From: Amphiscolops sp. MND2022
Taxonomy: Eukaryota
Assembly: GCA_964187785.1 (NCBI GenBank)
Contig: OZ076409.1
Coordinates: 56,732,001-56,796,000 of the forward strand
DNA length: 64,000 nucleotides
Direction: 5' to 3'
The translations under genes were made by a program, and so were the position numbers. The notes under the pieces are model-generated. The model did not search any database. It saw nothing but the letters and a program-made list of their open reading frames with translations, and was not told the origin of the DNA. This document shows, in pieces, positions 14,364-57,657 of the stretch. The first letter of the stretch is position 1; each line of letters starts with the position of its first letter.

Positions 14364-14477
14364 TTTGACAGGAATCTCACATTTCCGTGAAAATTTTGAT
14401 GAGATTCTTGGTAATCTTATCAAGAGTAACAAGAAAATACCATTTTGCAAAATCTTGCCAATAGTTTCAAGAAGTTT

Positions 14478-15199
14478 TGTAACGATAAGCGCTGGCGCTT
14501 GAACCGCAACGTAGAATGGAGGAACTAGAACAGCGAATATAATCTGGGACTTAGATCTCCGCGGCCCTAGCTCATTTTCCCTCCGAAGGAGCCAGTCCCA
14601 AGGTGGGGGAACCGTCTTGTTGGAAACTCTCTGGCCTGGTCCTAGTCTGTAATTGCTAAAAGTAACGGGCATCTTGCATGTCTCAAGACCACTGCTCAAT
14701 TAGCCTTTAAAAAGGGGGCTGAAAACGGGAGGATGTTGAGCCATAGTATTGGAGAATCTGATAAAATCGACATCAAAAAGGGGTAACCATAGATGTAAAT
14801 GGGCAGCTCTCGAGCATATCAATCTACTACAACAAGGAAAGCACAACAAGTACAACAATATCGGAAGTTTGAGTTTTTAGTAGGAACGAATTGACCATGG
14901 CTTCCCAGCGCTAGCGCTCGTCACCGCACAGGACGCCGCAGGATCTTCAGGCGAGCATCTGGAACACCGGTTTCTGTTGCCTATGTAGTGTAAACGCCAA
15001 AGACCAAAGATGGGCACTTCACCGTGTTCTAGGGACTGTTTTCTACGTCTTCTCTTCTCGTCGTCTCTCGCGGGGGCGATTTCTGATTTTTGATCTGCTT
15101 TTTTTTGACAGGTCTTTCGTCTGGAGCATGTTTGAGTGCCACGTCAGATTTGAACGAATTTTTGCTTCGAAAATTTTGACATGGGCAGTTACCGTTACA
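14478..15199 (-). repeat. 3' LTR of element A (722 bp)
   Basis: TGTAACG...CGTTACA inverted termini; no difference from 32634-33355 found by eye. Confidence 0.97.
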
Positions 15200-15208
15200 T
15201 CACTCCCC
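15200..15208 (-). promoter_or_regulatory. Polypurine tract of element A
   Basis: GGGGAGTGA on the minus strand abutting the 3' LTR; identical in element C (52373-52381). Confidence 0.8.
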
Positions 15209-15781
15209 GGGCTTCTGGCTTGTCGTCCCTGGCAAGCGGCATCTGGCCTCGTCTGGAAACGGCATCGCTGAGACTGCTGGGGATCATCATCCACACCACA
15301 GGGGACAAGGACGAGTCCTTGTTTTTCAGCAACTATTTTTGACAAATTTCGCTGTTTTTTTTTCAAAGAAAATTTTACCGCCTAGTATTTTTACAAAAAG
15401 TGCAAACGAGGTTTTAGCACCAGCTCGAGAGCTAAGGTTTTCAGTCGGTTAAAACTCGTTTGGGCAAGCAGTTTTCGCTAAAAATTCTTTTGCGACCAAG
15501 GTCAGCTAAAATTTCTTTTTCCGTGCAACTTGTCATTTACAGTTTTCGATCAATTTCGGACAACATAAAACTTCTTTTGGGAGGGCGCCGCTTCGGCTAC
15601 TCCTTAGACAGTCGATAGAAGGTGCTTGAGCACCAAAACACAAAAAAAACGGCAAAAATCGTAACTAAAAGGCTAAGACTTTTTCTAGACCATGGCAACT
15701 CAAAAACACCGCGAACGGTGCGCAACAGAAATAACAGTTTTTCTTTGGTAATAGATTCTTTTTTACTTTGTAGGCGAAGCA

Positions 15782-15957
15782 GCTGGGGCAGGTGCACTCT
15801 ATTGACCGTACACCCAGCGCATTACTAACAGTACAATAACTAAGTAATAACTATGAACAAAAAATTGCACCATGTAGGGGTAGCACCGGCTAAAGCAATA
15901 AGTTTGAAGGCACAGTTTCGGTAGAGTTTAGAGTCTATAGGGAGCGCGAACGCTCCC
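15782..15957 (-). other. Conserved RNA stem-loops in the 3' UTR of element A
   Basis: GGGAGCG-UUCG-CGCUCCC (15940-15957, identical at 53082-53099) and a second stem at 15782-15818 whose differences from 52940-52976 preserve pairing. Confidence 0.7.
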
Positions 15958-15971
15958 ATTGGCGGCAGGGT

Positions 15972-18389
15972 TTATTGGGCTGAGCTGCGTCGAGCTCGAT
16001 TCTTTATGGCATCATCGGGAGCTCCTGGATTGCTGGCATCTTCCGACGCAACTGACGCTCTGCGTTGAGCAGGAACCACAGTAACTACTGTTTCCGAGTC
16101 GGACAGGTCCTCTGGGAGCGTCAAATCGGCGATTGGCTGCACCAGGATAGTGCTGGGGGTCAGTTCAGCGTCGTGTTCTCCGGTCTGGGGTTGCGATGAC
16201 TGAGGACTGGCTTGTGTCGACGGTGGACTCACAGGCTCTGCCTGCAGGATATGAGTGGGCAAATCCAGAGTCACGGGTCGGTCGATGGGCTGACTTAGTG
16301 ACATGGCCATTGTGGGTGCCAGCATGGTAGGCGCGAACGCCTGTTGTCTCTCGAGTTCAGCTCTACTCTCCACGGCCAAGGATATCCGCTTGGAGACCCA
16401 GCCGGGCTGACTCCAGAGCTCGCAAGCTCGCTTCCATTTGGGGAAGCTGGCAATTTCCAGCTCCAAACAATGTCCTTCCCACTCTGCGCGGGCTTCAGAG
16501 CCTAGCACAGAATTAATCTCATCGTGTTGGACGATAGACATATCCCCTGACATCGTCATCTTGGCTTGCGGTCGCCAGGCAGCTTTTCTTGGGAACGGAG
16601 TCACACGGCTCTGCAGGTTCCTCTGACGAGTCTGAGCTGCTCCTTCAATCCAGTTTGGGATTTGAGTCAATTCCATATACTGGATTTGTCGATTGAAGGC
16701 TTCAGGGGCGCGACCCACGGGTTTTGCCCTAGGCCATCCCAGTGGCTCCTTCCAGTAGTGATTTGGGAAAGTGATGCATTTGAAAGCGTACAGGGGATCT
16801 ACAGGTGGACCAGCACTAATGCTGGCTCGGATCACCTTGCGTATGAATTCCTGCGACCAGGGGAATCTAAAGGGGACTCCATTCAGGCTGAGAGGTGCGG
16901 AGTACCAGTTGACTGGGCCGTATTCTCGTGGCAAAGGGCACGCTTTTCGTGTGCGAGCACGCAACAGACCCATCAAATTCTCTTCTAGTTGTTTCTCCGA
17001 CTTCAAGGTGGTGTACCCGTGCGGCATCTCGCCACTCAATACAGCCTGCACGATTCGCTGATAGGTTAGTGGGGGCCGTCCTTGGAGATAGGTGCAGAAG
17101 GAGACCATATGCACCTGTACTGTTCTCGCCAATGGTTTGGTGGGATACCGGCACACACCGACCGCACCGAAGATTGGAGCCAAGACGGAAGCCATAACGG
17201 CCACGAAGTCCTCCACTTCGGCCAGAGTCAAATCGGCGATTTGCTGGGGCATGGGGAATCCCGCCGTTTCCGCAGGGAGTTGACGCTCGGAATGGTGGAG
17301 GGGTTGCGATTGATCCACGCCTACGAACAAGCCAGAGGCGAACACTAGGGTGGAGTACAACCAATGTTGGAGGGACGCACGCATGCGTTCTAGCTGGGCG
17401 ACATAATCTTGCTGGTCCTTGGAATTTAGGAGATGACCCCATCGAGTTAGGCTGCGTAATTGTCCCTGCGCGAGGATCAGGTAGCTGTAGAAAGTGACTA
17501 GATCACTAGACACTACCAACTCGACTAACATAGCAAGGGGACCTGCCACAAACTTCGTCGGGCCCATGGCTAGCGCGAGCGCTAACATCTCTCCTACAGT
17601 AGCTTCGCCGATGGTTTCCAACAATTTGTCGGTCTGCACATTGGTGAGCAAGTACTCAGAGGCTATTACGTCGATGTTCCAGCCTAGTCCGAGACTGGTA
17701 CAAAAGGCTTCCAAGGGACAGTTAAGCTCTTGAGCTACCTCGGCCAGGGTCCTGTCCACGAATCTGGACTGATACCATTCGGCATACGTTATTCCGGCGG
17801 CATCTACTTCAGCCTTCAAGTTGGTCGCCTCTGTAGCCACGACGTACCTCATGCCCACGGGCAACTTGACGGGTTCTATTCCCGCGGCAAACCGAATCTG
17901 GGGAATGGTCCTTTCGACCGTGCGTGTGGCAGGCCAGGTTTCAATTTCCTTCACGAGCTCTGCCAGCTCTGCTCGTACGGGAATTTCTTTGTCCTTCCGC
18001 ACCAGCCAGTTGTATCGTCGGACGGCCTCCCGTTCACTCATGTTGGATGCTCGCATGACGCGATTCCCGTCCAAGTCGAAGGCCATTCGCCCCATACACA
18101 TTCCATGATCGAACAGTATGGCGTCGTCGATAGTCAGTTGTGCATTTCCTGATCGTTCCACAGCGATTAGTACTCTTGACACGGCAGCAAAGAAGGCGGG
18201 GTATGACAATGCATCGGGGCGTAGGTCTCCTCGATCAACTTCGGCGCGCTTTGCATACTTCAGACAGGATGTACACAAATTGCTGCAAGCTTCGTTGCCA
18301 ATACATGAATCCCGGCGGGGATGCGAAGAGCGCGAGCGCTCCCAGACGACCCCGAAGGATCCCTGCTGCACGCTCCATTGCATCTGCAA
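15972..18389 (-). CDS. Accessory ORF3, C-terminal part (real coding frame from ~18240; end of SGNH-like domain plus ~720 aa unknown region)
   Basis: 805-aa ORF, highly similar to element C 53114-55379; joined to 18235..20220 by a frameshift at ~18240. Confidence 0.8.
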   Translation of the reverse strand: MQMQWSVQQGSFGVVWERSRSSHPRRDSCIGNEACSNLCTSCLKYAKRAEVDRGDLRPDALSYPAFFAAVSRVLIAVERSGNAQLTIDDAILFDHGMCMGRMAFDLDGNRVMRASNMSEREAVRRYNWLVRKDKEIPVRAELAELVKEIETWPATRTVERTIPQIRFAAGIEPVKLPVGMRYVVATEATNLKAEVDAAGITYAEWYQSRFVDRTLAEVAQELNCPLEAFCTSLGLGWNIDVIASEYLLTNVQTDKLLETIGEATVGEMLALALAMGPTKFVAGPLAMLVELVVSSDLVTFYSYLILAQGQLRSLTRWGHLLNSKDQQDYVAQLERMRASLQHWLYSTLVFASGLFVGVDQSQPLHHSERQLPAETAGFPMPQQIADLTLAEVEDFVAVMASVLAPIFGAVGVCRYPTKPLARTVQVHMVSFCTYLQGRPPLTYQRIVQAVLSGEMPHGYTTLKSEKQLEENLMGLLRARTRKACPLPREYGPVNWYSAPLSLNGVPFRFPWSQEFIRKVIRASISAGPPVDPLYAFKCITFPNHYWKEPLGWPRAKPVGRAPEAFNRQIQYMELTQIPNWIEGAAQTRQRNLQSRVTPFPRKAAWRPQAKMTMSGDMSIVQHDEINSVLGSEARAEWEGHCLELEIASFPKWKRACELWSQPGWVSKRISLAVESRAELERQQAFAPTMLAPTMAMSLSQPIDRPVTLDLPTHILQAEPVSPPSTQASPQSSQPQTGEHDAELTPSTILVQPIADLTLPEDLSDSETVVTVVPAQRRASVASEDASNPGAPDDAIKNRARRSSAQ

Positions 18390-20220
18390 CCACGTTCACT
18401 AAGGACGCTACACTCCCAGGTCTGCGGGTATCTGCCATGAGGGCATCCAGGTTGCGTAGTACCCCTTCGCAAGCCATGTGGTCGATCAGATTTGTGAAGA
18501 CTACACGTCGCGGGGGCGGCTCTCTTAGAGACCCTCTCAAGTTAGGGTCATACATGACCGCGACCATCTCGGCAACCTCAGCGAAGCGGGAGAGTGGCAT
18601 CGTTAATACCAGCACATCGGGCAGAAGGTTGTCGATGGGGAGATCACTCCTAAGTGTCGAGTCTACTGCCACACAGTAGCGCGCACGCTGCAGGGCCGCT
18701 TTCAGAAGGGGCTTCATTGATTTGATGTTGCGAGCATAGCGGGCGTTGGCTTCCCAGGTTTCCCCTTCGTGCAACATGTACCTAGCAGGAAATTGCTCGG
18801 TGAGGTCATGCTGCAGGCGAGCCATATAATTGTTGGGTGTCGCGGGCAGTTGCTCTCGAGCACGCTGTTCCCAGGCTTGCTCACTCATGTCCGCATCACG
18901 GGCACGTAGCGACCGAGTTATCTGAGCCGCAATGGTGATTCTGCTCACTTCTTTCTGGTCGGCGTCAGACGGCGGTGCCCTCCTTCTGATCGCACACGTG
19001 TTCGGGTACAAACACTCCGCCGCCATCCAGATGCGTTTGCTATCGCCAGTCACCACTGTGCCGGATACGTCATCGGACAGGGGAAGAAAGGCGGGAGGAT
19101 TGTTCTCATCGATTGTCTCGGACACCTCCAAGGACATGTTGGCAGAGCCTGTGCCCGAGGGCACAGGACTCGTTTCAGGATTCGCCTCCACACTGCCGTA
19201 GCGGTTGATGGCCTCTTCCAGGGACATCTGAGGCGCGCCTACGCCTAGGTGGCCGACGCGATATGGAGGCCTCACGACCACCACACTTTTCATCTGCGAC
19301 TGGTGGGGTACATCTGCTCGCTTGTCCGGAGGGGGACGACTGGTCGGACTGTCGGTCACGGAATCATGGCGTGTAGCGACGATATTTTCCTCAGTAAGTC
19401 GCTTCCGGCCAGTTTCCTCACGGGGATAGGTCATGGCGCTGGTGCTTGGTCCAGCCGTAGTTTCTGCTTCCATAGACACAGTTTCGGCTAGGGTGGTGGG
19501 TGGGGTGATGCAGCCCGAGGGCTGAGCGGCAGCTTGCAAGTAATGTGTCAATCCGGGAATCCTTTGCTCAACGGCACGAACGAAGTCAGAGGAGTTGGGG
19601 TAGTTGGCGACAGCCTGCAGGGCCACAATCACCGCTTGCTCGCTGGGACTCCGTCCAATCAGATTTAGATTAGGCACTGATGGCGGTTGGGACCCCGAGG
19701 GCTCCCGACTTGAGGCAGGTTGATTGGTAATGTTCTGCGTCGTCGTTGTCCGGGTTCCATATGGTGCCCCATAAGCAATCGAGCTAGAATGCGGCGTCGT
19801 CTGCACTGGATTTGGTGCCGCAATGGAAGGCAGCGATGGGACGTTGACGGGCATCATACGCAGTGATGTTTCTTGTTCGAATCTGGTGCCCTGGCTGGGG
19901 CCATGCACTGCGATTGATCTTTCGTCCAAGAACTGGTGAGTCAGGTCGTGCCCATCCCAGGCATTGTTGGTGCACGTCAAGGTGCGACGATAGCTTGCCA
20001 CCTCCGTGGTGATTGATAAAGATGCATTTGGCAGCATTTGCATCGATTCAAGCTGGGTCAATAGGGCGGCCACCCCAGCTACGGCTACTGGCGAAAGACC
20101 GTCCCGCAGCCTTTCTTCGACATATTGGGCCTGATTGACCCTCTGCGCTCGCGCAGATTCCTGGGGCCTTGCACTATTAGACCCGGTTGCAGGCGCTGAA
20201 TTATTTGGGCAATGGGCCAT
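18235..20220 (-). CDS. Accessory ORF3, N-terminal part (low-complexity region then degenerate SGNH/GDSL-like fold)
   Basis: 661-aa ATG-initiated ORF, orthologous to 55370..57370. Motifs YCVAVDST, VVFTNLIDH, LFASPP and (next frame) DLRP resemble SGNH blocks I, III, IV and V. Confidence 0.8.
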   Translation of the reverse strand: MAHCPNNSAPATGSNSARPQESARAQRVNQAQYVEERLRDGLSPVAVAGVAALLTQLESMQMLPNASLSITTEVASYRRTLTCTNNAWDGHDLTHQFLDERSIAVHGPSQGTRFEQETSLRMMPVNVPSLPSIAAPNPVQTTPHSSSIAYGAPYGTRTTTTQNITNQPASSREPSGSQPPSVPNLNLIGRSPSEQAVIVALQAVANYPNSSDFVRAVEQRIPGLTHYLQAAAQPSGCITPPTTLAETVSMEAETTAGPSTSAMTYPREETGRKRLTEENIVATRHDSVTDSPTSRPPPDKRADVPHQSQMKSVVVVRPPYRVGHLGVGAPQMSLEEAINRYGSVEANPETSPVPSGTGSANMSLEVSETIDENNPPAFLPLSDDVSGTVVTGDSKRIWMAAECLYPNTCAIRRRAPPSDADQKEVSRITIAAQITRSLRARDADMSEQAWEQRAREQLPATPNNYMARLQHDLTEQFPARYMLHEGETWEANARYARNIKSMKPLLKAALQRARYCVAVDSTLRSDLPIDNLLPDVLVLTMPLSRFAEVAEMVAVMYDPNLRGSLREPPPRRVVFTNLIDHMACEGVLRNLDALMADTRRPGSVASLVNVVADAMERAAGILRGRLGALALFASPPGFMYWQRSLQQFVYILSEVCKARRS

Positions 20221-20232
20221 TAATGCATAGGT

Positions 20233-20258
20233 CTAAAAAGGACCACTGTTAAACTTAC
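20233..20258 (-). promoter_or_regulatory. Putative splice acceptor for the ORF3 mRNA
   Basis: Minus strand gtaagtTTAACagtggtccttttTAG, 12 nt before the ORF3 ATG; same motif and spacing at 57383-57408 (gtaagcCTAACggtaatccttttTAG). Confidence 0.6.
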
Positions 20259-20514: not shown

Positions 20515-21807
20515 CTACTTCAGCCCTATAGTTAATATTGATACATATACGCGGCTATGCAAAACCACGTGAATACCAGTACCCTCGAACATGCTCGTTA
20601 GAGTATGGTACAGGTTAACCAACGAGAAAGCCGGTCTCTCGGGATCCAGAATCGGTAGGTGGACCCGTGTGGATCCTTTATCTATCAGGCGCTGTGTCAA
20701 GTGCGCCATGCAACGCAAGTAGTCGTCTGTCAGCAGCGGTGCGCGCTGGTTAGCACGGACTATCAACAGGTGAATACTTTGGTTGGGGTTGGGGTTCACA
20801 TCGGGCGGGATAGTGAGAATCTCGCCCACTTTAGGTCGTAAGGCAAATACATCTTCCATGCCGCACTCCCGCAGCACATATCGCAGGGCGGCAGAGTTGG
20901 TCTTTAGGTCAGCAGGGCATGCTAACACTATGTCGCCCTCGGCCTGCAAGAAATCGGATTCATCGTAAGAGACGTGTTCGGCTGAGTTCGGATACAGGGC
21001 TCCAGGGTAAACAATCTCTCGTCCGGGGCCATTATCGGGGGGCAGACACACGCGAGGGGTACGCCCTTGGACTGCAGCCAGGTCTTGCCACACTGAGCGG
21101 GGCATCGCTCGATTGTCGCTGCCGGCCTTTACCCACGCATCTAAAGTTCCCAGGGCGGCTTTAGGGAACAAGGGGATCTCGAAAGTGTGAGTCCACTCAT
21201 CTAATAGTCGAATTCTGGGATAGGTGGCGAAACATGTGATTATTAGTTCCAGCCACCACGCGAACTTCATTTTGCCTCGGTACCAGTCTATGATATGGAA
21301 GCAAAGTATTAAGTCCACAGTGGTGAGGGTCCTCAGACTCTCCAGACAGGATAACAGATTCAACGGTTCCACCAGCGCCTCCACTCGTGGAGCTGTTACC
21401 AGCAGCCACCAGTGAGGAGCCGGGCTGTATACCCCTCCTGGTTCCACCTGGACTCCATACTTGTCGCATAACGAATCAGCAGTGATGCATCGGACCATCT
21501 GCACAGGTTCCCTTTCAAAATTGAATGGTCCAAACGCAATATTACTAGGCACGGGGGGCAACACCGTGGGCAGGGTAAACTCCAGGCCTTTTCCATCGCT
21601 TGTCCACTCCTTAAACCTAGGACAAGGGGCCTTCGCTACCCCAGGCAGTGACAACTTCTCCAGGATAGTGTCCACAGGGTAGTCTCCGGACCGCTCTACA
21701 GCTGAGTAGGTTTTCTCGGCCCGCACCGTGAGGCGGTACACCAAGTTTTCTCTCTCTTCCGGAGGAACTCCCCGGGCTCCAATGGGAACCCTCCGGTTCT
21801 CATTCAC
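20515..21807 (-). CDS. C-terminal extension of Pol: Cys cluster plus two tandem TARG1/OARD1-like macrodomains
   Basis: The frame is open upstream to ~21900 (RYQLRSKRQPRYKCGTCGLRDCVC) and is continuous with the Pol tail in element C (57658..59343). Motifs VRCITAD..WLLVTAPR..NLLSCLESL and GEILTI..IHLLIVR..GSTRVHLP..FEGTGIHVVL. Confidence 0.75.
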   Translation of the reverse strand: MNENRRVPIGARGVPPEERENLVYRLTVRAEKTYSAVERSGDYPVDTILEKLSLPGVAKAPCPRFKEWTSDGKGLEFTLPTVLPPVPSNIAFGPFNFEREPVQMVRCITADSLCDKYGVQVEPGGVYSPAPHWWLLVTAPRVEALVEPLNLLSCLESLRTLTTVDLILCFHIIDWYRGKMKFAWWLELIITCFATYPRIRLLDEWTHTFEIPLFPKAALGTLDAWVKAGSDNRAMPRSVWQDLAAVQGRTPRVCLPPDNGPGREIVYPGALYPNSAEHVSYDESDFLQAEGDIVLACPADLKTNSAALRYVLRECGMEDVFALRPKVGEILTIPPDVNPNPNQSIHLLIVRANQRAPLLTDDYLRCMAHLTQRLIDKGSTRVHLPILDPERPAFSLVNLYHTLTSMFEGTGIHVVLHSRVYVSILTIGLK

Positions 21808-21886
21808 AGCTAATAAGCAGACACAATCTCGCAGCCCGCAGGTTCCACACTTGTAGCGCGGCTGTCGCTTACTCCTTAGTTGATAC

Positions 21887-24800
21887 CTAAGAGCAGTTGC
21901 AGAAATCTTCTGTTAGCGTCTCTGCAGTTCTGGGAGCTTCCGTTTCGGCCTGGATCGCAGTTTCAGTTTCGGTTTTTCTCGGTGTTTCTTTCTTCCTCGT
22001 TCTTGCCTTCGCTCGAATCAGCCGTTTCTTCTGTGCCTTGGGTGGTCTCCCCCTCCCCCTTTTAAAAGAAGGAGCGGTCCCCGCTCCTGGCGAAGTCTCG
22101 GGAGCATCAGGCAGATCGGGCTGAACGTCGCTGTCGCTGCTGGCAGATTTGAGGGGAATCGGAGGGGCGGTCGGCCATATGGGATAGTTACTAAGAAAGT
22201 TGGTTAGCGAGGGATTCGTCAACAAGGATGCTGAGGTTCCTGGTAACGATGTCTCTTCTTCAGAGGATATCTGCGGAGACGGTGAGCGCACGCGCTCATG
22301 GTCAGAGAACAGTTGGGGTAGTACACGGGCAGGGGATATCGACTGATCCAATGTAGTCGGAGGAGCCGCAGGCTCCACCCTATCCTCGTCAACGGGATTA
22401 GGAGGTATTGGCAACATGGCATCGGATAGTTCGTCGTCTGTACCCGAGGTGGAATAGTCAAATTGCTGATAATGTGGGCGGGAGCCGCCTGCGCGAAGCT
22501 TCGTGCGTAGTCGAGTGTCCATCCAGTGACGTCGACGTGAGGGCAAAGATGCATCGGACGCCTCTGAAAGTAGTTGTTCGGGTTTATACGACGATAAAGA
22601 CTGGTCGTCATCAACTACGTCGACGGAACGTTCAGGTTCGGGGTCCATGAGGACCACCACCTCACCACTGTCCGAGTGTGCAGTAGCAAGTTCAAGTGGG
22701 CCACTGTGGTGCGGTTTGAGACGCTCAAAATGAACCTTTTGACCTGTGTCTAGTACATAGACACGACCGTCCTGAAAAACTTGTACCACTTTGTGCGGGC
22801 CTCGCCAGGCACGCATCAATTTCGGGGAACCCTTTTGCGGTACGTAGCTGCAAAAAACCCAGACGAGCTCGCCTACTTGGTAAGCTCGCGCTTGTATAGC
22901 ACGGTCGTACTTCAACTTTTGACGCAATTGGGCTTGGTGCGTGTTACGCCGTACCAGGTCATGTATTTCCTGTTGGCGAGCCAATACATGATCGACATAC
23001 GCCTCATGCGACTCGAATGATTTGGCTGCAAACTCGGGATACAAGAACGTGAGAGGGATGGCCTTCTCTACGCCACGGGTCAGCATGTAGGGAGAGAAGC
23101 CAGTGGTAGCGTGCCTCGTAGAGTTGTAGGCACCCATGACCTCATCAAGACATTGGTCCCAATCGCGCATACGGCGGGAACAAAAAACTCGCAGTAGGGT
23201 CAGCAGCGTCCGATTTTGGCGCTCGACCAAGCCTTGGGTTCTCGGATGGCTAGCTGTAGAGGTTACTTTGGTAACGTGGGCTGCTTTTAGGAATTCGTTG
23301 GACACCTCGGCAGTCAAATTAGGGGCATTGTCAGACTGCATCCTAGTGGGTGTGCCATGACGGGCGAACCACTTTTGTAACAGCAACCGAGAGGTAGTCA
23401 CAGCGTCGTAGTCATGATGACTACAGGGCACTGCCTCCGCGAACTTGGAGAAATGGTCAATTATGACCAAAATGCCAGTGTTATTACTGTCTGAGGGGCA
23501 GATTTTCAGATGATCATATTGAACCAATTCGTTGAAGTATCCGCTTTGGATGTTCTTCAGATGGAATCGGACGTCGCCAGGCTTATCCCGCACTTGTTGA
23601 CAGGTGAGGCATTGGCCAACGTAACGGCCCACGCTGCGCCGAATACCAGGCCATGTGTGACGTTCTTGAATCCTAGCCACCACTTTGGAGATACCTTGAT
23701 GTCCCATGGCGTCATGCGCGCGGAATAAAATCTCATGCTGGTACAGTTGTGGCATGACGATCATGCACGGACGTTCGTGCAGGGGACGTTGGTTGGGAGG
23801 GTATTGTACGCAAAGTACACCATTCTTGTTGATAAACAGGAGGGTTTTCTTCTGACGGTAGTAGTTGCGTGCGAACTCACGCACGTTCTCGGGAAACACG
23901 TCGTGATCAATAGATTCGTTCAGCACCAACTTTTTGAGTGCTAGCACATGAACATCACGGTTTTGGGCTAGAACCAAATCTTTGATACCATGCACGGTGT
24001 GAGCATGTTCGTGAAGTTCAGTGTTGATATCTTTAAGAGCCATAATTGAGTCGCGCACACCCGAGGGAGTACCTTGCAACGCCACAGGATTCGCCCCGGC
24101 AATAGCATAGACGGTACGCGAGGGAACATTTACGGCATGCGTTGGCAATAGATAATCTTCGCGTGCTTCATCAGTCACATCAATCCAATCCTCAGGGTAG
24201 TCTGGATAGGCATCCTCGTGCAGTTGCAGAGCAAGGGCAGGCGGAGGTGGCAAAGGGGCTGCGAATGCTTTCGCTTGTCTGTCCCTCCTGCTCGCTCGTT
24301 TGGTGCGGCGAAGCACGCGTAGCAATTGGTCGGGAGCCTTAGGCTCCAAGTTCTGCAGGTGCGCAGGTAACTCGGGATGGTTCGGGATGACTCGACCCTG
24401 AAGGTCGAACCATGGGGCAACAGGTAGCTTATCAAATTCGTCAGCTGAAAGAAAGTTCCAGCGTTCGCCCGCAGCTGGCTGCTGTGCAAGCTGTTTTTCG
24501 CGGCATCGGTACTCGTTGGTTCGTTTGCTCAAGCCATCGGCGTTTCGATGTTGGGTCCTTGGGCGGTGTTCCACGCGAAAGTGATATTTCTCCAGGGTCA
24601 TGATCCATCGGCCGATTAACGCTTGATCCGTGGAGTAGGTTTTCAACCAGGACAAAGCTTGGTTGTCCACCCGCAGGGTGAACTTTCGGGGACATAAATA
24701 GCTGTGGTTCTTCACTATGAAATAGTAAGCGGCGAACATTTCAAGTTTGGGGGCTCCGTATTTGGCTTGTGTGGTGGTGAGCTTCTTGCTACCGTAAACT

Positions 24801-27586
24801 ATCGGTCTCAGGCGTCGTTCACCCGGAGGACCTTGCCACTGGTGCAGGATACCCGAAATGGCGACAGCACTAGCGTCAGTGTCTAACACAAACTCTCCTT
24901 CGGAATCAGGCTGCGCGAGCGCAGTTGCCTCGATCAGGGCTTTTTTGATCTCATTGAATGCGGTTTGTTGCTCAGGACCCCAGGCGAAGGTGGCATTCAG
25001 TCCAGTGACGGCGTGCAGGGGTGCAACCAGCTTGGCGTGCCAAGGAATGAACTCGCGATAATAGTTGGCAAATCCAAGGAAACTCTGCATTTCCGTCTTG
25101 TTGCGGGGAATTTCCCAATCACGCAACTTGACGACGGCTTTTGGGTCGGGCTTCACTCCTTCTGCGGATACCACTCGTCCCAAGTACTTGATTTCCGATT
25201 TCATGAAATCGCATTTGGCCACGCGCATTTTGAAACCGGCTTCACGGAGACATTCAAAGACTTCACGCAGACGTACCATATGGTCTTCCACAGTCTCCGT
25301 GGCAATCACGATATCATCAATGTAGGCCATGACCATGCTGCCCTCACGATTGACAATATTCCTTAGCGCACGCGCTATTGACCGTTGAAACGTGGCAGAT
25401 GCATTGCACATACCAAATGGCATTCGCCGCCACTCAAAAAGTCCTAATTCGCAAGCAAAAGCGGTTTTGTGGCGATCCGCTTTGCGCACGGGAATTTGCC
25501 AAAAGGCCCAAGCAAGGTCTATGCTGGTATAGATCTTTGCTTTGCCTAGCCGTGCCAGGCTTTCATCGATGCGGGGCAAGGGATAAGCATCCTTAATGGT
25601 TACCTCATTTAACGGGCGGAAGTCGCAGCAAAAGCGCAACTCCCCGTTTTTCTTTTTCACCATTACAATGCCGCTCGCCCAGGGGGACAGCGAGGGCTGT
25701 ATCATTCCCAGAGCTAATAGGTTCCGTACCTCCTGATTGGCACGTTCGGCCTTCTCAGGAGACATCCGGCGAGCACCTTCGCGATGCGGTACAGCCCCTG
25801 GTTCCACCTCCACGGTGTGCTTAGCGATAGTGCACCGACCGATGTCTGCTTTGTGTTTCATGAACAGCTCATCGAATTCATCGAGGAGGTTACGGAGAGA
25901 TTCGCAGGCGCTAGCGCCCCACAAATCCTTGACCGCCTTGAGCTGAGATTCCGGCCCAGGAATCGGAGCCATTAGCTCTGGGTCTGCTCGTTTGCGAATC
26001 TCGCGCTCCGATAGTCCTGCCTCGCTAGGGTCAGTAGAGGACAAAAACTCAAATTCGGAAGAAGAGGTTAACTCAGAAGCAGTAGATAGATTCACTTCAC
26101 TATAAACTTTATGAACAAAATTTGCACGACCGTCGTCGGCGTCAGTTTTAGTGCCGGTTGTAGTGGGAGAGTCCAAACATTGAGGTACTGCTTGGTATAC
26201 TACCGTTACGGGTACTACGGTGCCCAGTTGTACACCACACCGCATACGTTGAGGGTTGCTGGTGAGATTTATCAGACTCACAAAGAGTGTTCCTGTCTCA
26301 CTGACAGTGGCCACGCTGTCCTCTAAAAAGACGACATTGTGCAACGTAGTGTCAGACAAAGAGGCATTGAGCGCTACGCTTTGAAAAATCAGCGGCTCTA
26401 GTGTGTTGGTGACGAGCTTGGCTCTAGCCACCGCTCGTTCAAAAGGTTGCAGGACCAAATCACTGTCCAAAACGACTGGAGTAGCTATTGAAGTGTCACC
26501 TACCTGTGCGTGAGCATGATGCCACACAGGCTTCACTGGTGCTCGCACCACAATCTTCATAGATGTTAGATCCACTAACACCTGGTAGGAGCGAAGAAAG
26601 TTCCGGCCAAGTAGGAAGTCTTCCACGCCCATTGCGTCATCTACCACCACAAAGTTCGTTTCAAGTTCGTATCCTCCCAGCTGGAAATGGATGTGTTCTG
26701 CGAGGCCGTAGGTTTTTATTGTCTTCCCGTTGGCTGCGTATAGGTCAACTTGGTAGGGTTTAAGTACCGTTCCAGTTCGAGCTGCCACTCTGTTGAAGGC
26801 GGAAAACGTCAGTATGGAGACGCCCGAGCCAGTGTCCACCAGTCCTCGCAGCGGAATAGGTGCTGCATGAGGCACCACGAAAGAGACCACGAGCGACGCA
26901 CGCTCATCTATACGCGCTTCGCCGGTGGGCTCCTGGTGATTGATGTTATAGCATTTGAGCTCCTGGGGACCCAGACAAATGCCAGGGGGAAACACATCCA
27001 CCACCACACAGGCTTCGAACTTCATGTCCACTCCATCCATTGAAGCGCAGACTGGCACTGGGGAATACGTTGTCAGAGTCGCAGACTCTCCCGGAGCGTA
27101 CCATTCTTTCGGTCGAGGTAACTCGTTTCGTTTATAGAGGATAGATAATTCGACCCATAGCTTCGCCAGAGTTAGCGTCGGCCTACGTGTTTGCTCAGCT
27201 GCCAGCAACAGGTGAATTGAAATCAGTGTACGTCCTTGCGGATCGAACGTTGTGGGTTCCAAGCAGGTTTGAACTTGCTTAGCACCACAAGTGAAAGTCA
27301 TCGGAGTGTGGAACGCAGGCGGTTCCGCTGGATGTAGCATCAACACACGGGTATCTTCCAAAGGTACGGTGTGCGCGGCGATGCCAGCCGATTCAACCTC
27401 AGCCCACCGATTGTAGGCCAACTCTTCATTGGGTTTCGGCGCATGGGAGTGCTCTCCACATTGCACTTCCGCCTGATCAAAAAGGCCACAGCTCGCGCAT
27501 TGATAGATCCCTGGATGACCTTCAAGGATACCATCGGTCGTGTCTTCCGTGGTCACCTTCACGCCCTCTGGTTCGGAGGCAGTCAT
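21887..27586 (-). CDS. pol: Pol polyprotein (degenerate PR + PR, dUTPase-like region, RT, RNase H, integrase, AT-hook tail)
   Basis: LVDTGSG and LLGRNFL (protease); YIDD at 25313-25324; RNase H LDTDAS/VDNQAL; integrase H-H-CLTC, YDHL/QSDN/VER, GPH; KRGRGRPPK. The frame extends upstream to ~27710 and includes CFHCGQNGHFAREC. Confidence 0.95.
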   Translation of the reverse strand: MTASEPEGVKVTTEDTTDGILEGHPGIYQCASCGLFDQAEVQCGEHSHAPKPNEELAYNRWAEVESAGIAAHTVPLEDTRVLMLHPAEPPAFHTPMTFTCGAKQVQTCLEPTTFDPQGRTLISIHLLLAAEQTRRPTLTLAKLWVELSILYKRNELPRPKEWYAPGESATLTTYSPVPVCASMDGVDMKFEACVVVDVFPPGICLGPQELKCYNINHQEPTGEARIDERASLVVSFVVPHAAPIPLRGLVDTGSGVSILTFSAFNRVAARTGTVLKPYQVDLYAANGKTIKTYGLAEHIHFQLGGYELETNFVVVDDAMGVEDFLLGRNFLRSYQVLVDLTSMKIVVRAPVKPVWHHAHAQVGDTSIATPVVLDSDLVLQPFERAVARAKLVTNTLEPLIFQSVALNASLSDTTLHNVVFLEDSVATVSETGTLFVSLINLTSNPQRMRCGVQLGTVVPVTVVYQAVPQCLDSPTTTGTKTDADDGRANFVHKVYSEVNLSTASELTSSSEFEFLSSTDPSEAGLSEREIRKRADPELMAPIPGPESQLKAVKDLWGASACESLRNLLDEFDELFMKHKADIGRCTIAKHTVEVEPGAVPHREGARRMSPEKAERANQEVRNLLALGMIQPSLSPWASGIVMVKKKNGELRFCCDFRPLNEVTIKDAYPLPRIDESLARLGKAKIYTSIDLAWAFWQIPVRKADRHKTAFACELGLFEWRRMPFGMCNASATFQRSIARALRNIVNREGSMVMAYIDDIVIATETVEDHMVRLREVFECLREAGFKMRVAKCDFMKSEIKYLGRVVSAEGVKPDPKAVVKLRDWEIPRNKTEMQSFLGFANYYREFIPWHAKLVAPLHAVTGLNATFAWGPEQQTAFNEIKKALIEATALAQPDSEGEFVLDTDASAVAISGILHQWQGPPGERRLRPIVYGSKKLTTTQAKYGAPKLEMFAAYYFIVKNHSYLCPRKFTLRVDNQALSWLKTYSTDQALIGRWIMTLEKYHFRVEHRPRTQHRNADGLSKRTNEYRCREKQLAQQPAAGERWNFLSADEFDKLPVAPWFDLQGRVIPNHPELPAHLQNLEPKAPDQLLRVLRRTKRASRRDRQAKAFAAPLPPPPALALQLHEDAYPDYPEDWIDVTDEAREDYLLPTHAVNVPSRTVYAIAGANPVALQGTPSGVRDSIMALKDINTELHEHAHTVHGIKDLVLAQNRDVHVLALKKLVLNESIDHDVFPENVREFARNYYRQKKTLLFINKNGVLCVQYPPNQRPLHERPCMIVMPQLYQHEILFRAHDAMGHQGISKVVARIQERHTWPGIRRSVGRYVGQCLTCQQVRDKPGDVRFHLKNIQSGYFNELVQYDHLKICPSDSNNTGILVIIDHFSKFAEAVPCSHHDYDAVTTSRLLLQKWFARHGTPTRMQSDNAPNLTAEVSNEFLKAAHVTKVTSTASHPRTQGLVERQNRTLLTLLRVFCSRRMRDWDQCLDEVMGAYNSTRHATTGFSPYMLTRGVEKAIPLTFLYPEFAAKSFESHEAYVDHVLARQQEIHDLVRRNTHQAQLRQKLKYDRAIQARAYQVGELVWVFCSYVPQKGSPKLMRAWRGPHKVVQVFQDGRVYVLDTGQKVHFERLKPHHSGPLELATAHSDSGEVVVLMDPEPERSVDVVDDDQSLSSYKPEQLLSEASDASLPSRRRHWMDTRLRTKLRAGGSRPHYQQFDYSTSGTDDELSDAMLPIPPNPVDEDRVEPAAPPTTLDQSISPARVLPQLFSDHERVRSPSPQISSEEETSLPGTSASLLTNPSLTNFLSNYPIWPTAPPIPLKSASSDSDVQPDLPDAPETSPGAGTAPSFKRGRGRPPKAQKKRLIRAKARTRKKETPRKTETETAIQAETEAPRTAETLTEDFCNCS

Positions 27587-27602
27587 TGGTTTTCGGGCCT
27601 GG

Positions 27603-29930
27603 TCACGATTGGGGCACTCGCGAGCAAAATGTCCGTTTTGCCCACAGTGAAAACAAGCACCTACTGGCGCTCGGACGGGAGCTGGGACAGCCGGAGCTGG
27701 GACATTTTGGGGGGGGCGCCGGAGGTGGCAAGACGCCCTGCGGCATAACCATCTTGTTCGGCGGTAGTGGTGCGAAAGGATGAGGTCTAGACCTCATGGC
27801 TAATCGGGGATCATAGGGTTGTTGAGGTTGGGTGGGTCTGGGACGATTGCGTTGCAGCTGACGTGTGGTAAATCGCAAGGACTCCACGGTAGGGGGTTCG
27901 GTAAGAAAAGTTTCCGAGGCGTATACTATAGCAAGTTCACGCCTCAACACTGGATCTCGCACACCTTCCATGAAGCGTTGCAGGATTTCATAGCGTTTCG
28001 TAGTGATACTTTCTTGCGGGAACCCTTGGCTCCTGAGACCCTCTAAAGCGTCTAAGTACTGCATCCAGTCTTCTTTTTCTTGTTGGACGCGGCCTTGGAA
28101 AGTCTGCCGCACCTGCATGCGATTTCCTCCCGCGCCAAATCGACTAGATAGCAGCTCGAACACCTTCTCGGGGGTGTCACGTTCAGACTCTGCCTTGTTG
28201 ATAATGTAGTTGCGAGCCTCACCCTCGAGGTGACCGATAATACTCCAGGCCCGATCTTCGGCCGAGATTTTGGTTTGGATTCTTTTTAAGTATCGCTGCA
28301 TCACTAGGATCCAGCCATCAATAGATCCATCCTTAGAGCCTCGATACACACTGGGTTTGGTCTGAGCCAGGTCACGTCCCGCAAGTAACGGTGCTAGTTC
28401 TTTGGACATTGCTTTGGAAATGGCGGCAGTGAACCTCAATTGTTCAGGAGAAATGACTTCAGCCTCTCCTTCTTTAGGCGCCACATCATCGGTGCCGTCG
28501 TCACTGCCATGCGTAGCTCGCACTGAGAGGTTCGTCACGTCTTCTTTCCTGCGAGTGCTGCTCGCGCAAGGAGCGCCCGAGGGCATCCCGTCCTCAGCTG
28601 TCCAGTCGGCGGTCAGATACATGGAGTCCGTTCCAGAAACCATGGTAGGTGCCGTCACATATGCAGCTCCATCGGTCTGGGACCCTAGTGTGGCCTTAGT
28701 ACAGGATAAATCAACTTCGGTAGAAGTATCTAGATAGATAGGTGACATCGGGTCCACACCTTGGTCTCGGGTGGCACTTCGAACTATGGAGGATGTCATT
28801 TGGCTCATCGACGAGGAGTCGTGGGGCCCTCTTACCTGCACCCGTGCAGGTTTGCGCTCCACAGCAGCCAGGATGGGCACAGGATCCCTGGTTCGGGCTT
28901 CAGGCGTTGTCGACTTGGAGGTGCTGGGCTTCAATACGCTCGCCAACTCGGGTTTTGTTGCCTGACTCCGGTGCGATGATTCCGTGGCCTTCATTGAATC
29001 CGCGATCGGCACACCTTCAGCGGCACCAGCTTGTCGTGGGAGGGACCTTTCGCGCCTCATGATGTTGATAGCATTGAGCACAGTGTGCATTTGGTTACTC
29101 AAATCATTGATCTGGGTTTCCACACGAAGTTCACGGGCCATCAGAAGGTCATTCATCTCACCCATTCTGTATCCTAGTGCATCTACGCGAGCGCTCTGCG
29201 TATTCTGCGCGGTTCGCAGTTGATCACTGACCTGCAGACCTTCTCGCATCGTTGTCTGCAATGTTCTCATATTTTCTGCGATGGCACGGTGTTGGTCATT
29301 GCATCCAGCACGAGTGCTAGCCAGTTCAGCTAAGGCACGTTGGGTCTCGGCTTGGGCTTCCAATATTGCTGCTTTGTACACCGAAGATCGTTGGGATGAT
29401 GCCACTGAACCTGCCACGCTCCTCTTACGAGGCACCTCAACTTGACGTTCACCTACATTTATCATGGGTGGTCGCACTTTCTTGTGTTTGCCATAAGCAC
29501 AAACTCTAGTGTTACTTCGAGTGACTCCAGTCCCTTGCGGTCTCGCACCACTCGGGTTTTCCGAGTAGGTAAGATCATCATCCACCGTGATTTGTAGGCG
29601 AGAGCTCATTTGCTCCCCTAGGGGTGCGCGAGAGCACCCTTCCTCAGCTGCAAGTTCGTTGGTCACGTTTGAGTTGGGCCACTCTTCCTCTGCTTCATTG
29701 GCTCTTTCACGACAGGTTTCTTCGACCCATTGTTCGGTTCGACGAGAGCTTCCAGATGCAACGGAGCCCTCGGAGGGAGGGACCATGGCGGCCAGTTCCT
29801 CCTTTCGTTGTTGCTCGATAGTGACTTCGTCAGACATTTCGTCTGAAAAATGCGAACCGTCCATTGTGGATCCTATGGTCACCCATGACTGCGAACTCAT
29901 GTCAAGCTTTTCCAGGCCTGGTAGGACCAT
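27603..29930 (-). CDS. gag: Gag (long N-terminal extension, coiled coil, capsid-like domain)
   Basis: 775-aa ORF upstream of pol; retrotransposon capsid motifs YRGSKDGSIDGWI, LEGEARNY, RVQQEKEDWMQY. The CCHC knuckle lies in the +1 frame beyond the G8 run at 27709-27716. Confidence 0.88.
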   Translation of the reverse strand: MVLPGLEKLDMSSQSWVTIGSTMDGSHFSDEMSDEVTIEQQRKEELAAMVPPSEGSVASGSSRRTEQWVEETCRERANEAEEEWPNSNVTNELAAEEGCSRAPLGEQMSSRLQITVDDDLTYSENPSGARPQGTGVTRSNTRVCAYGKHKKVRPPMINVGERQVEVPRKRSVAGSVASSQRSSVYKAAILEAQAETQRALAELASTRAGCNDQHRAIAENMRTLQTTMREGLQVSDQLRTAQNTQSARVDALGYRMGEMNDLLMARELRVETQINDLSNQMHTVLNAINIMRRERSLPRQAGAAEGVPIADSMKATESSHRSQATKPELASVLKPSTSKSTTPEARTRDPVPILAAVERKPARVQVRGPHDSSSMSQMTSSIVRSATRDQGVDPMSPIYLDTSTEVDLSCTKATLGSQTDGAAYVTAPTMVSGTDSMYLTADWTAEDGMPSGAPCASSTRRKEDVTNLSVRATHGSDDGTDDVAPKEGEAEVISPEQLRFTAAISKAMSKELAPLLAGRDLAQTKPSVYRGSKDGSIDGWILVMQRYLKRIQTKISAEDRAWSIIGHLEGEARNYIINKAESERDTPEKVFELLSSRFGAGGNRMQVRQTFQGRVQQEKEDWMQYLDALEGLRSQGFPQESITTKRYEILQRFMEGVRDPVLRRELAIVYASETFLTEPPTVESLRFTTRQLQRNRPRPTQPQQPYDPRLAMRSRPHPFAPLPPNKMVMPQGVLPPPAPPPKCPSSGCPSSRPSASRCLFSLWAKRTFCSRVPQS

Positions 29931-31146
29931 TACACAATGCCAATGGCAGAGTAGGTGTCAACGATTCGGACGTAGCCTTTGAAGAAGCCTCGAAAAACGC
30001 GGGATTGGTCGAGTCGCTGTTAGCTTTAGGCTCGTCTCGGTGTGGACTTAAGAAATTTGACTGTTTCACAACGTCCCAAATTTCTCGAAATGCGTTTTAA
30101 GGCTCGTAGGCTGTTCAAATTTACACAGCGCTTTTCCACAAGCACACTGGGCCAGAAAATCAACCTGGTTCGGGGCAAAACGTCTCCGGTCACTCACAGG
30201 AAGAATTTCAAAGATTTTTTGGATTTTCCAAAATTTGCACTACAACACTCAAAAGGCTCGTGTGTGCGCTGGAGGCGTTGTATCAAGCCCAAATTTGACC
30301 AGCAGATCTTAGGTACGTGTAGGTTTACGAAAATAAACACAGTTTTGAGCTGCGCCCCTTCTACACAGTTTCGCCTAGGTATAGACGTGCGGTACCACTA
30401 TGTACCAAAATACACTGTTTTTCACGTCTTTTTCAAGATTGCGGTCCACTGCAAAAATCTAGCAAGCTCAAATTCTCTGCAACAACGTAGGAACTAGCAC
30501 AGGCTACGATGATAGGCTGCAATATGGCCCCACCCGTCGGCTAAGGTGCCCGGGTTACTTGGATAAATTAAGAAAAAACTGCCTTTTTGCGCACTTTTTT
30601 GGGCGCCGCGTTTTTCCTATTTTCTCAACAGGTACCGCACAGATCGGCACCAAACTTGGTAGTTTATGCCAGTGGGCACCTACAATGCCACTGATATTGT
30701 CAAATTGAAGCGCAAGCGCTTATTTGAAGTCCCGACCTACTATGTACGTTGTACACAAAAAACACTGTTTTTGACGACTTTTTTCACAAATTGACCAAGA
30801 GGATCACCTCAGGAAGTAATACGGCGGGTAAAATGGGACCAGCGTGTCGCCCCGCTATCCGTAGCACTGGGATAAACCCTCTATTGGTTGTGCCCGTTAG
30901 GTATAAGGCACTGACGGTCTTGCAGTTTTGGATTTTTTCGGCTTTTTCAGCTTCTCTGGAGTCAAAACGTCAGAGAGCTTTTCTCGACTTTGGGGAACGA
31001 TACGCCCACCAAAATTTCGGCACTAACGTTACTTTCTGTGGTGGTTACGAAAATGCAACCACTTTTTGGCTAGGGTTCAGGAATCGATGACCCGACCCTA
31101 GCTCAGAGACAGTCCGGTTTTGTGGAAAATTGATCAGATTCAGTGC

Positions 31147-32600: not shown

Positions 32601-32618
32601 ATCCCTCTGTGGTCGCCA
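32601..32618 (-). promoter_or_regulatory. Primer-binding site of element A, tRNA-Arg type
   Basis: TGGCGACCACAGAGGGAT on the minus strand, resembling the complement of a tRNA-Arg(UCG) 3' end (...UCCC-x-GUGGUCGCCA); lies 15 nt from the LTR. Confidence 0.75.
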
Positions 32619-32633: not shown

Positions 32634-33355
32634 TGTAACGATAAGCGCTGGCGCTTGAACCGCAACGTAGAATGGAGGAACTAGAACAGCGAATATAATC
32701 TGGGACTTAGATCTCCGCGGCCCTAGCTCATTTTCCCTCCGAAGGAGCCAGTCCCAAGGTGGGGGAACCGTCTTGTTGGAAACTCTCTGGCCTGGTCCTA
32801 GTCTGTAATTGCTAAAAGTAACGGGCATCTTGCATGTCTCAAGACCACTGCTCAATTAGCCTTTAAAAAGGGGGCTGAAAACGGGAGGATGTTGAGCCAT
32901 AGTATTGGAGAATCTGATAAAATCGACATCAAAAAGGGGTAACCATAGATGTAAATGGGCAGCTCTCGAGCATATCAATCTACTACAACAAGGAAAGCAC
33001 AACAAGTACAACAATATCGGAAGTTTGAGTTTTTAGTAGGAACGAATTGACCATGGCTTCCCAGCGCTAGCGCTCGTCACCGCACAGGACGCCGCAGGAT
33101 CTTCAGGCGAGCATCTGGAACACCGGTTTCTGTTGCCTATGTAGTGTAAACGCCAAAGACCAAAGATGGGCACTTCACCGTGTTCTAGGGACTGTTTTCT
33201 ACGTCTTCTCTTCTCGTCGTCTCTCGCGGGGGCGATTTCTGATTTTTGATCTGCTTTTTTTTGACAGGTCTTTCGTCTGGAGCATGTTTGAGTGCCACGT
33301 CAGATTTGAACGAATTTTTGCTTCGAAAATTTTGACATGGGCAGTTACCGTTACA
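32634..33355 (-). repeat. 5' LTR of element A (722 bp)
   Basis: Direct repeat of 14478-15199. Confidence 0.97.
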
Positions 33356-56100: not shown

Positions 56101-57370
56101 TCTTTATAGCACATTGACTGGGGTAAAGGTGCTCAGCGGCCATCCAAATGCGTTTGCTGTCATTTGTGACTACTGAACCGGATACGTCATCAGAGGGAGG
56201 GAGGAAGGCTGGAGGGCGGGCCTCCTCTACTGTCTCAGGTACTTCCAGGGACATGTCTACTGGATTCGTGCCCGAGGGCACAGAGCTCACTTCCGAGCCT
56301 GCATCCGGATCTCCATACTGCTCGATTGCGTCCGCTAGAGACATCTGAGGCGCGCTTCGGCCTAGATGACCCACTCGGTATGGAGGCCTGGGGATGACTA
56401 CGTTTTTCAGCTGGGGTCGAGGTACATCAGCGCGTTTGTCGGGAGGGGGACGACTAGTCGGACTCTCGGTTGCTGAGCCAGCTGGGGTGACTGAGGCAGT
56501 TTCTTCAGTGAGTCGCTTTCTCCCGGCTTCTTCTCGTACGCCAGTAACAGCGCTTGCGCTATTGCTTGGTCCAGCAGCAATTTCTACATCCATAGATGCT
56601 GTCTCGACTAGAGGAGCAGGAGGATCACAGCCCGAGGGCTGAACAGCAGCTTGCAGGTAAGTGGCTAGCCCAGGGATTCTTTGCTCTACGGCACGGACAA
56701 AATCGGAGGAGTTCGGATAGTTGGCCACTGCTTGCAATGCCACAATTACGGCCTGCTCGCCGGTACTCCTTCCAGTCAGGTCTGGGTTTGGTATGGGTGG
56801 CAACCGGGACCCCGAGGGCTCCCGATCAGAGACTGGTGCACTAGTTGTGGTTTGCAATACCATGTGTGGCGCTCGGTACGATGTCCCAAAGGCAGCCGAA
56901 CCGGAGTAGGTCGGCGTCATTGGTACTGGTTTTGGTGCTGGTGGAGGCAATGCGACCATCTGAGGTGGTGGCATTGTTGCAACGTTGGCAGGCACCATAC
57001 ACAGGGAAGCTTCTTGCTCGAACCTCGTGCCCTGGCTGGGGCCAAGCATTGTGGTAGAGCGTTCATCTAGGAATTGATGCGTCAAGTCGTGGCCATCCCA
57101 AGCATTGTTCTGGCAGGTTAGCGTGCGACGGTAGCCAGCTACTTCCGTCACAAGAGACACAGATACACCTGGCAGCGTCTGCAACGTGTCTAGTTGAGTG
57201 AGCAGGGCGGCCACGCCCGCTACCGCTAACGGTGAAAGGCCGTTCCTCAATCGCTCTTCCACATATTGGACTTGATTAGTCCTCTGCGCTCGCGCAGGCA
57301 ATTCTTGAGACCTATTGCTATGAGGTCCCGTCGTGGGGATAGGCACCGTGTTGTTGGGGTAATAAGCCAT
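53114..57370 (-). pseudogene. Element C ORF3 (SGNH-like accessory gene), broken into 55370..57370, 54393..55379, 53952..54386 and 53114..54049
   Basis: Colinear protein similarity to A ORF3 from the start Met to the terminal RRSSAQ. Confidence 0.88.
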
Positions 57371-57657
57371 TATATCATTGGTCTAAAAAGGATTACCGTT
57401 AGGCTTACTAGGTGCATTATGGGAAGAGCTTAGGGCTCATCATCCAGTTACAATGGTGCAAAGATGGCTCCATAAGGGAACCGCAACAAGTTTAAATTGA
57501 AGTTCAACTAACTAACTAGAACATAAAGATAGGGGTTATTGAACGGTACATTACAAGTTAATCATTCCGTGGGATAGTTTAAGACTTCCTCCCAGATATG
57601 ACAATTGCCGGGGTGGGGAAATTAAGGAGGGGACAACAGAAGAGAGCTTTGGGCAGG

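Follow-up and report, generated by a model that had tools for sequence, protein, structure and literature searches.

A predicted SGNH-type domain without its canonical histidine in ORF3 of an abundant Ty3/gypsy family from Amphiscolops sp. MND2022

Contig OZ076409.1 of Amphiscolops sp. MND2022 (assembly GCA_964187785.1) was analysed over a stretch of 64,000 nucleotides (positions 56,732,001 to 56,796,000 of the forward strand, referred to here as the window). The window contains a Ty3/gypsy long terminal repeat (LTR) element of ~18.9 kb (14478-33355, minus strand; copy A), which belongs to a very abundant element family. Its third open reading frame (ORF3), which follows pol on the minus strand and precedes the 3' LTR, in the position of an envelope (env) gene, encodes a protein whose central domain is predicted to adopt an SGNH-type fold with Arg in the column of the canonical catalytic His. 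ORF3 is under purifying selection, and a tentative role for it as a non-cutting binding module is proposed below.

The central domain of ORF3

The main features of ORF3 in the window copy are as follows:
18235..20220, minus strand: 5' piece of ORF3, start codon at 20220
15972..18236, minus strand: 3' piece of ORF3, in the other frame
18236..18245, minus strand: copy-specific frame-shifting deletion, seen by alignment with other copies
19855..20142, minus strand: conserved domain near the N-terminus, residues 27-122, with 31-79% identity between subfamilies
18153..18684, minus strand: SGNH-like domain, residues ~513-700, from the predicted model and profile alignment
18658-18660, minus strand: Ser521 (AVDS)
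18478-18495, minus strand: TNLIDH motif, with Asn577 at 18490-18492 and Asp580-His581 at 18478-18483
18219-18221, minus strand: Arg678 (DLRP)
17331..17858, minus strand: all-helical domain, residues 799-974, predicted to be compact within the model of residues 500-1160
16353..17330, minus strand: further conserved region, residues 975-1300, with low to moderate model confidence
17151..17207, minus strand: internal hydrophobic, proline-kinked helix, residues 1016-1034, preceding a conserved RYP motif

Structure prediction was based on a natural open copy (L034). A first model, built from 12 sequences, had a mean predicted local distance difference test score (pLDDT) of 41 and gave weak and mixed fold matches (Z 5.5-7.1), with an enolase-family chain ranked first and none found by Foldseek. 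A second model, covering residues 500-1160 and built from 79 sequences, had a mean pLDDT of 68.7, with values mostly of 76-96 over residues 540-670. Among the top 50 of 48,161 chains compared with this model, 39 carried titles of the SGNH type (esterases, lipases, acyl- and acetyl-transferases, and OSK), 9 titles were uninformative, and the 2 unrelated folds appeared first at rank 43 and then at rank 50. The best match had a Z of 8.5 and a root-mean-square deviation (rmsd) of 3.2 over 138 aligned residues; in a second fold comparison, TesA was found at Z 8.8 (rmsd 3.0, 135 aligned), the leading matches aligning over 135-153 residues. The central domain is hence predicted to have an SGNH-type fold.

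Sequence profiles point in the same direction. A profile of the domain was compared with eight intact SGNH domains (seven from the same genome and the first unit of P0197, an unnamed ENA protein), and blocks I and II lined up with theirs (E 0.0027, score 26.9). As controls, 30 block shuffles reached no more than 21.3 and the reversed profile 18.3, and the real score dropped to 22.5 when the protein P0196 was left out. The spacing of the blocks agrees with that of intact SGNH domains. P0196 and P0197 matched the domain profile with hhalign probabilities of 94 and 93, and their blocks read AGSD, LPGA, G-x-NDH and NLR, with Ser, Gly and Asn kept and His replaced. Searches with the central domain found no match in Pfam, PDB sequences or the ESM Atlas (a blank in the Atlas shows neither absence nor novelty), and neither ORF3 nor its parts matched NCBIfam or PHROGs. 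A match to a designed PPR protein in the PDB-sequence search was rejected as a sum of repeats with no single significant stretch.

Residues at the active-site positions were counted in a 79-row alignment that includes degenerate fragments and related copies, and whose rows are not independent samples. In block I, Asp520 (22/25), Ser521 (24/25) and Thr522 (24/25) are highly conserved. The oxyanion Gly column of block II is occupied by Leu (20), Cys (8), His (2), Tyr (1) and Gly (1, in P0196 only) among 32 rows. Block III of the genome's subfamilies has the form N-x-hydrophobic-D-H, with nearly invariant Asn577 (32/33), Asp580 (33/33) and His581 (31/32; Tyr in P0326); a hydrophobic residue stands at the place of the oxyanion Asn, and GMND was seen only in P0196. 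The catalytic-His column of block V contains Arg678 in 39 of 48 rows and His in one. The Asp of DLRP is kept in 23 of 46 rows and lies outside the DxxH Asp position, whose own column is variable. Even the distant relative P0196, at ~20% identity, has Arg in place of His and keeps both Ser and Asp-His.

The SGNH definition includes invariant catalytic residues, as given in PMC5408684, and a His mutant of the ZfL2 esterase lost its activity according to PMC3905857. Given these two points and the Arg in the His column, a canonical SGNH mechanism is very unlikely for ORF3, and normal esterase activity has probably been lost. On the other hand, the retention of Ser, Asp-His and Arg suggests that the pocket is still under selection, for binding or for a rewired catalysis.

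An earlier note on this DNA, made from the letters alone, had described an ORF in the env position with AVDS, TNLIDH and DLRP motifs and a degenerate SGNH fold. The ORF is present at that place, the three motifs were found in the window copy with equivalents in copy C (a second element in the window), and the fold agrees with the second predicted model (Z 8.5-8.8). The note's reading that the catalytic His is gone also holds, as Arg fills its column; its alignment of DLRP with DxxH does not, since the D of DLRP is not the DxxH Asp, and the loss extends to the oxyanion Gly and Asn.

Conservation, other regions and relatives of ORF3

In the window copy, ORF3 is split over two frames (18235-20232 and 15972-18395). 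The short deletion near 18240, which costs the SGNH-like domain a segment between its blocks III and V, is absent from all 29 other copies aligned, 25 of which are open across the entire 3.68 kb examined, and copy C is broken by other deletions. The split is therefore a lesion of the window copy; a programmed frameshift was ruled out, as the break is private to this copy and the breaks of copy C are different. ORF3 is a single frame in the ten copies fetched (1430 or 1428 codons between stops, and 1350 in one copy), which gives a natural protein of 1426 aa counted from the first Met. A search of the genome (1.07 Gb, 1929 contigs) with the central domain yielded 3145 first-look candidates; 150 were scored, all at >=96% identity, and 97 of these 150 best matches fall within an open frame of 1420 codons or more. 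The LTR pairs of the ten fetched copies differ at 0-6 positions, suggesting that the family is young.

ORF3 was also found behind pol in subfamilies at ~80% (L091, L092), 50% (L089, L093), 37-45% (L081, L119) and 30% identity (L122-L127). The conserved blocks comprise residues 27-122 and about 450-1145, and C-terminal conservation extends to approximately residue 1300 in close subfamilies and to ~1145-1160 at 30% identity, while the linker and tail are of low complexity and rich in P/S/T. The ratio of nonsynonymous to synonymous substitution rates (dN/dS), calculated against two subfamily copies with three regions saturated, was 0.04-0.09 for the core and did not exceed 0.18 for the linker and tail. 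By these ratios, ORF3 is under purifying selection, more than would be expected by chance. A host gene that was captured once or is decaying could be ruled out by the low dN/dS and by the position of ORF3 behind pol at every subfamily locus with a readable pol side.

The N-terminal domain (27-122) had no relative in Pfam or PDB-sequence searches. The helical domain (799-974; pLDDT mostly 85-96) had no match in Pfam, PDB sequences or the Atlas and was absent from the top 50 fold matches (Z 6.0 or more), where it was searched only as part of the 500-1160 model and not alone. Residues 975-1160 are predicted to be helical with a pLDDT of 50-75. The helical and unrecognised region could be identified by eye in P0288, P0326 and P0196, which suggests that it travels with the SGNH-like domain. 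The earlier note had mentioned ~600 aa of strongly conserved, unrecognised sequence behind the central domain; the lack of recognised relatives was borne out by the searches, whereas the extent of conservation varies with subfamily distance as given above.

With respect to envelope traits, hydropathy indicated neither a signal peptide nor an N-terminal transmembrane segment (19-residue maximum <=1.35 in the first 60 aa) and no C-terminal anchor (<=0.74 in the last 150 aa) in seven family members, two of which are incomplete at an end. A single internal hydrophobic stretch (1016-1034, hydropathy 1.7-2.3) is kept in 7/7 members. The sole RxK/RR site lies 8 residues from the end of ORF3, and P0024 has none. 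No fusion-protein fold was matched at E <= 0.001 in viral or PDB libraries, a comparison in which the parts outside residues 500-700 were barely covered. Described Ty3/gypsy envelopes have a signal peptide plus an anchor, or two anchors, according to PMC13524379. By its sequence traits, ORF3 is not an envelope protein, in agreement with the earlier note, which had reported neither a signal peptide nor a clear C-terminal anchor and had favoured a protein other than a fusion glycoprotein.

Protein searches gave 25, 188 and 113 matches, those listed all being unnamed ENA proteins, and 637 matches among 50% representatives (the best 150 of 637 listed). In one of the relatives, P0197, a single frame encodes an intact GDSL domain recognised by Pfam and, behind it, a homolog of the ORF3 domain that lacks the His; an origin of these two SGNH units by tandem duplication was unsupported, as they share no sequence similarity. 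When compared with the genome, P0196 gave only 23-29% matches, and P0288 and P0280 had no strong match with the queries used. Because these three proteins are poorly matched here, relatives probably exist in other genomes. A scan of JGI metagenomes with one protein query, which detects close relatives only, returned 29 pattern matches and no relatives. Separately, SGNH domains that look intact occur in repeated DNA of the same genome and fall into at least six distinct families (L137-L166; 39 matches to PF13472).

The element carrying ORF3

The remaining features of copy A and the ORF3 of copy C are:
32634..33355, minus strand: 5' LTR, 722 bp, TGTAAC...GTTACA, 100% the same as the 3' LTR
32602..32618, minus strand: primer-binding site (PBS)-like sequence TGGCGACC..., 15 nt past the LTR end; candidate primer site
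27603..29957, minus strand: gag, with a weak PNMA match
21887..27793, minus strand: pol (zinc knuckle, protease, reverse transcriptase, RNase H, integrase)
20515..21912, minus strand: conserved pol tail, ~400 aa, the final ~165 aa macrodomain-like by eye
15200..15214, minus strand: polypurine-tract-like sequence adjoining the 3' LTR
14478..15199, minus strand: 3' LTR
53114..57382, minus strand: copy C ORF3, 73% identical to copy A in DNA, with breaks at ~55373 and 54094

The LTRs end in TG...CA, the domain order in pol is protease-reverse transcriptase-RNase H-integrase, and gag runs on into pol without a break in most other copies examined. Copy C begins at 51644 and is 75% identical to the window element. 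A leader of ~2.7 kb (window 29958-32601) between the 5' LTR and gag contains a two-copy repeat with a 180-bp period (31147-31429).

A target-site duplication of 3 bp (TTT) flanks the window element (14475-14477 and 33356-33358), and a 3-bp duplication was found in 11 of 12 evaluable copies from three subfamilies. These 12 comprise the window copy, nine fetched copies of subfamily A (eight matching and one mismatching) and one copy each from two distant subfamilies (loci L031-L048, L098/L100 and L135/L136); a tenth subfamily-A copy with a mis-set boundary and two pairs that were not evaluable are left out of the count. The chance probability of 11/12 such duplications is ~1e-18. LTR elements, including Ty3/gypsy, usually generate target duplications of 4-6 bp, a range from which the present family differs. 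In the literature searched (largely papers available without subscription, without supplements), no description of 3-bp duplications was found for LTR elements; they were found for DNA transposons alone (PMC10741241). An integrase leaving 3-bp duplications would be one yield of this clade of elements, along with two conserved domains of ORF3 without recognised relatives.

The PBS-like sequence is separated from the 5' LTR by 14-15 nt in all three subfamilies read, distant ones included (window 32602-32633), a displacement that implies a long terminal overhang on the complementary DNA. The pol tail (L034:1978-3183) occurs behind the integrase in all subfamilies at 40-78% identity and shares the integrase frame in 7/10 other copies. 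Its macrodomain identity is unconfirmed, the likeness being by eye only with no match in PDB sequences or Pfam, and no gypsy integrase with a macrodomain was described in the same literature. Ahead of the conserved tail lie a motif resembling an AT-hook and a stretch of the form CxxC...CxC.

Other observations in the window include a smaller Ty3/gypsy element on the minus strand (39993-46128) whose 211-bp LTRs are identical and whose coding strand is very rich in A, a near-perfect palindrome of 176 bp with 88-nt arms and no spacer (39124-39299), and inverted arrays of 15-bp repeats around ~500 bp (47601-48321), which resemble the ends of foldback elements or of miniature inverted-repeat transposable elements.

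Candidate roles and comparison with known systems

Based on the predicted fold and on analogy, it is tentatively proposed that ORF3 is a conserved accessory protein, whose His-less SGNH fold binds lipids or acyl groups without cutting them and holds the ribonucleoprotein of the element at inner membranes. The retained pocket residues (Ser521, Asn577, Asp580, His581 and Arg678) would form the binding site, with Arg holding an anionic head group. The hydrophobic helix 1016-1034 would touch the membrane, the helical domain 799-974 would serve as a scaffold, and ORF3 would also contact Gag or the element RNA. The mechanism is modelled on ZfL2 ORF1p, whose membrane binding is independent of catalysis: its esterase floats with liposomes even when catalytically dead (PMC3905857). 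That the clade retained the fold under strong selection after losing the canonical catalytic set would mean that the element needs binding rather than hydrolysis.

Several points weigh against this proposal. The fold matches, at Z 8-9, are modest, and Foldseek with the second model returned nothing at E <= 0.001 from the PDB and viral libraries, although the viral-library row with the top probability (0.91, above E 0.001) was an SGNH protein. The Ser strand (AVDS segment) has a pLDDT of 31-39, lies outside the model core and was unplaced in both models, and its slot, from the aligned ranges (model residue 34 against residue 1 of the chain), seems to be filled by the following strand; the assignment of block I thus rests on sequence. 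ZfL2 membrane binding was ascribed to surface charge (PMC3905857), whereas the ORF3 domain is near neutral (24 K/R versus 23 D/E, net charge +1). The hydrophobic helix may be merely buried in the fold. The earlier note had suggested a pseudo-esterase, which is likely in so far as the canonical His is gone and is qualified by the near invariance of Ser521, Asp580 and His581.

These same near-invariant residues would fit a rewired enzyme equally well. In such an enzyme, His581 of block III, together with Asp580, would activate Ser521, and Arg678 would bind the substrate or the oxyanion. The conservation of all five pocket residues given above, and the survival of Ser and Asp-His in P0196 at such low identity, are in favour of this possibility, which nevertheless appears unlikely. 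The block III Asp is also usual in the aligned intact SGNH domains, where it is a structural residue. Moreover, His581 is replaced by Tyr in P0326, the oxyanion Gly and Asn are missing in the genome's subfamilies, and the Ser strand is modelled with low confidence.

An OSK-like role, in which the dead fold would bind RNA and guide the RNA or particles of the element to the germline or to germ granules, is considered unlikely. OSK itself (PDB 5a4a) was among the fold matches (Z 7.5, rmsd 4.0, 142 aligned) and binds RNA without catalytic residues, as stated in PMC5785220, and ORF3 has long P/S/T-rich, low-complexity linkers. However, OSK ranked only 19th, within about 1 Z unit of the top rows and level with dozens of ordinary esterases; no LOTUS domain, OSK sequence match or RNA-binding family was found in ORF3 or its parts (Pfam, PDB sequences); the domain has no basic excess; and the ZfL2 esterase, which is active, showed no binding to oligo-(A) RNA (PMC3905857). 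The particular tie to Oskar drawn in the earlier note is not supported by these comparisons.

Alternatively, ORF3 might act as an adaptor to host proteins in counter-defence, for example against small-RNA or chromatin silencing, with the SGNH fold providing only a protein-docking surface. The extreme success of the clade (150 matches at >=96% for one subfamily and 3145 first-look candidates) and a multi-domain architecture with two domains lacking recognised relatives are compatible with this role; yet purifying selection is strong with no fast-changing region (dN/dS <=0.18), and the conserved pocket-like residue set suggests a small ligand, which together make it quite unlikely. A bolder and decidedly improbable possibility is that these giant Gypsy elements constitute an undescribed old clade, characterised by the 3-bp duplication, the displaced primer site and the extended pol tail. 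ORF3 would be its hallmark in place of an envelope, combining a rewired Ser-His-Arg SGNH domain with a helical domain of new fold and carrying the particle from cell to cell, either along membranes or through them, with no fusion glycoprotein involved.

It is very improbable that the domain is not SGNH-derived and that its motifs are a chance likeness in another flavodoxin-like fold. Such a view could draw on the blank searches in Pfam, PDB sequences and the Atlas, on Z values of no more than 8.8 with the Ser strand unplaced in both models, and on the enolase-family chain that came first for the poorer model, but SGNH chains occupy nearly the entire list for the better model, the block spacing is that of intact SGNH domains, and P0196 has S, G and N at the expected places. 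That ORF3 is an overlooked envelope or fusion protein serving spread between cells, as the env position and one conserved hydrophobic stretch might suggest, is scarcely credible in view of the missing signal peptide and C-terminal anchor and an RxK/RR site that occurs only near the end and is absent in P0024.

The Vesta LTR retrotransposons of bdelloid rotifers are among the closest known systems: PMC5408684 describes their ORF3 as a GDSL/SGNH protein with invariant catalytic residues, and both ORF3s share an SGNH-type domain and a non-env position behind pol of an LTR element, without envelope traits. In contrast to Vesta, the family described here has other residues in place of His, Gly and Asn, and its SGNH-like domain belongs to a protein of 1426 aa that holds two more conserved domains of unrecognised kind. 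According to the same paper, Athena-L Penelope-like elements carry non-catalytic GDSL derivatives; compared by description, they also represent a retroelement-borne SGNH derivative without catalytic residues, in another element class. ZfL2-1 ORF1p of the CR1/L2/RTEX long interspersed elements shares an element-encoded SGNH fold, but differs in its active Ser-His-Asp triad, its ORF1 position, its coiled-coil dimer and its non-LTR element (PMC3905857). Like ORF3, OSK has an SGNH-like fold minus the catalytic set, whereas Oskar is an insect host gene with a LOTUS domain (PMC5785220 and PMC7250577). Env-carrying Ty3/gypsy errantiviruses have a third ORF in the same position, from which ORF3 differs by lacking a signal peptide and terminal transmembrane segments, and the main text of PMC13524379 makes no mention of SGNH, GDSL or esterases.

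No His-less SGNH ORF3 was described for LTR elements in the literature covered here. P0197 (an intact SGNH domain beside a His-less one), P0196 (S-G-N kept) and the elements of this genome (only S kept) form a natural series. Retroelements of several classes have captured SGNH domains again and again, and the lipid binding of ZfL2 offers the sole biochemical handle on the reason. In comparison with these systems, the ORF3 module acts like an element-borne SGNH domain and is neither a canonical SGNH hydrolase nor Oskar nor env; SGNH-type ORF3s were known already from rotifer LTR elements, and what is new here is the disarmed, multi-domain form.

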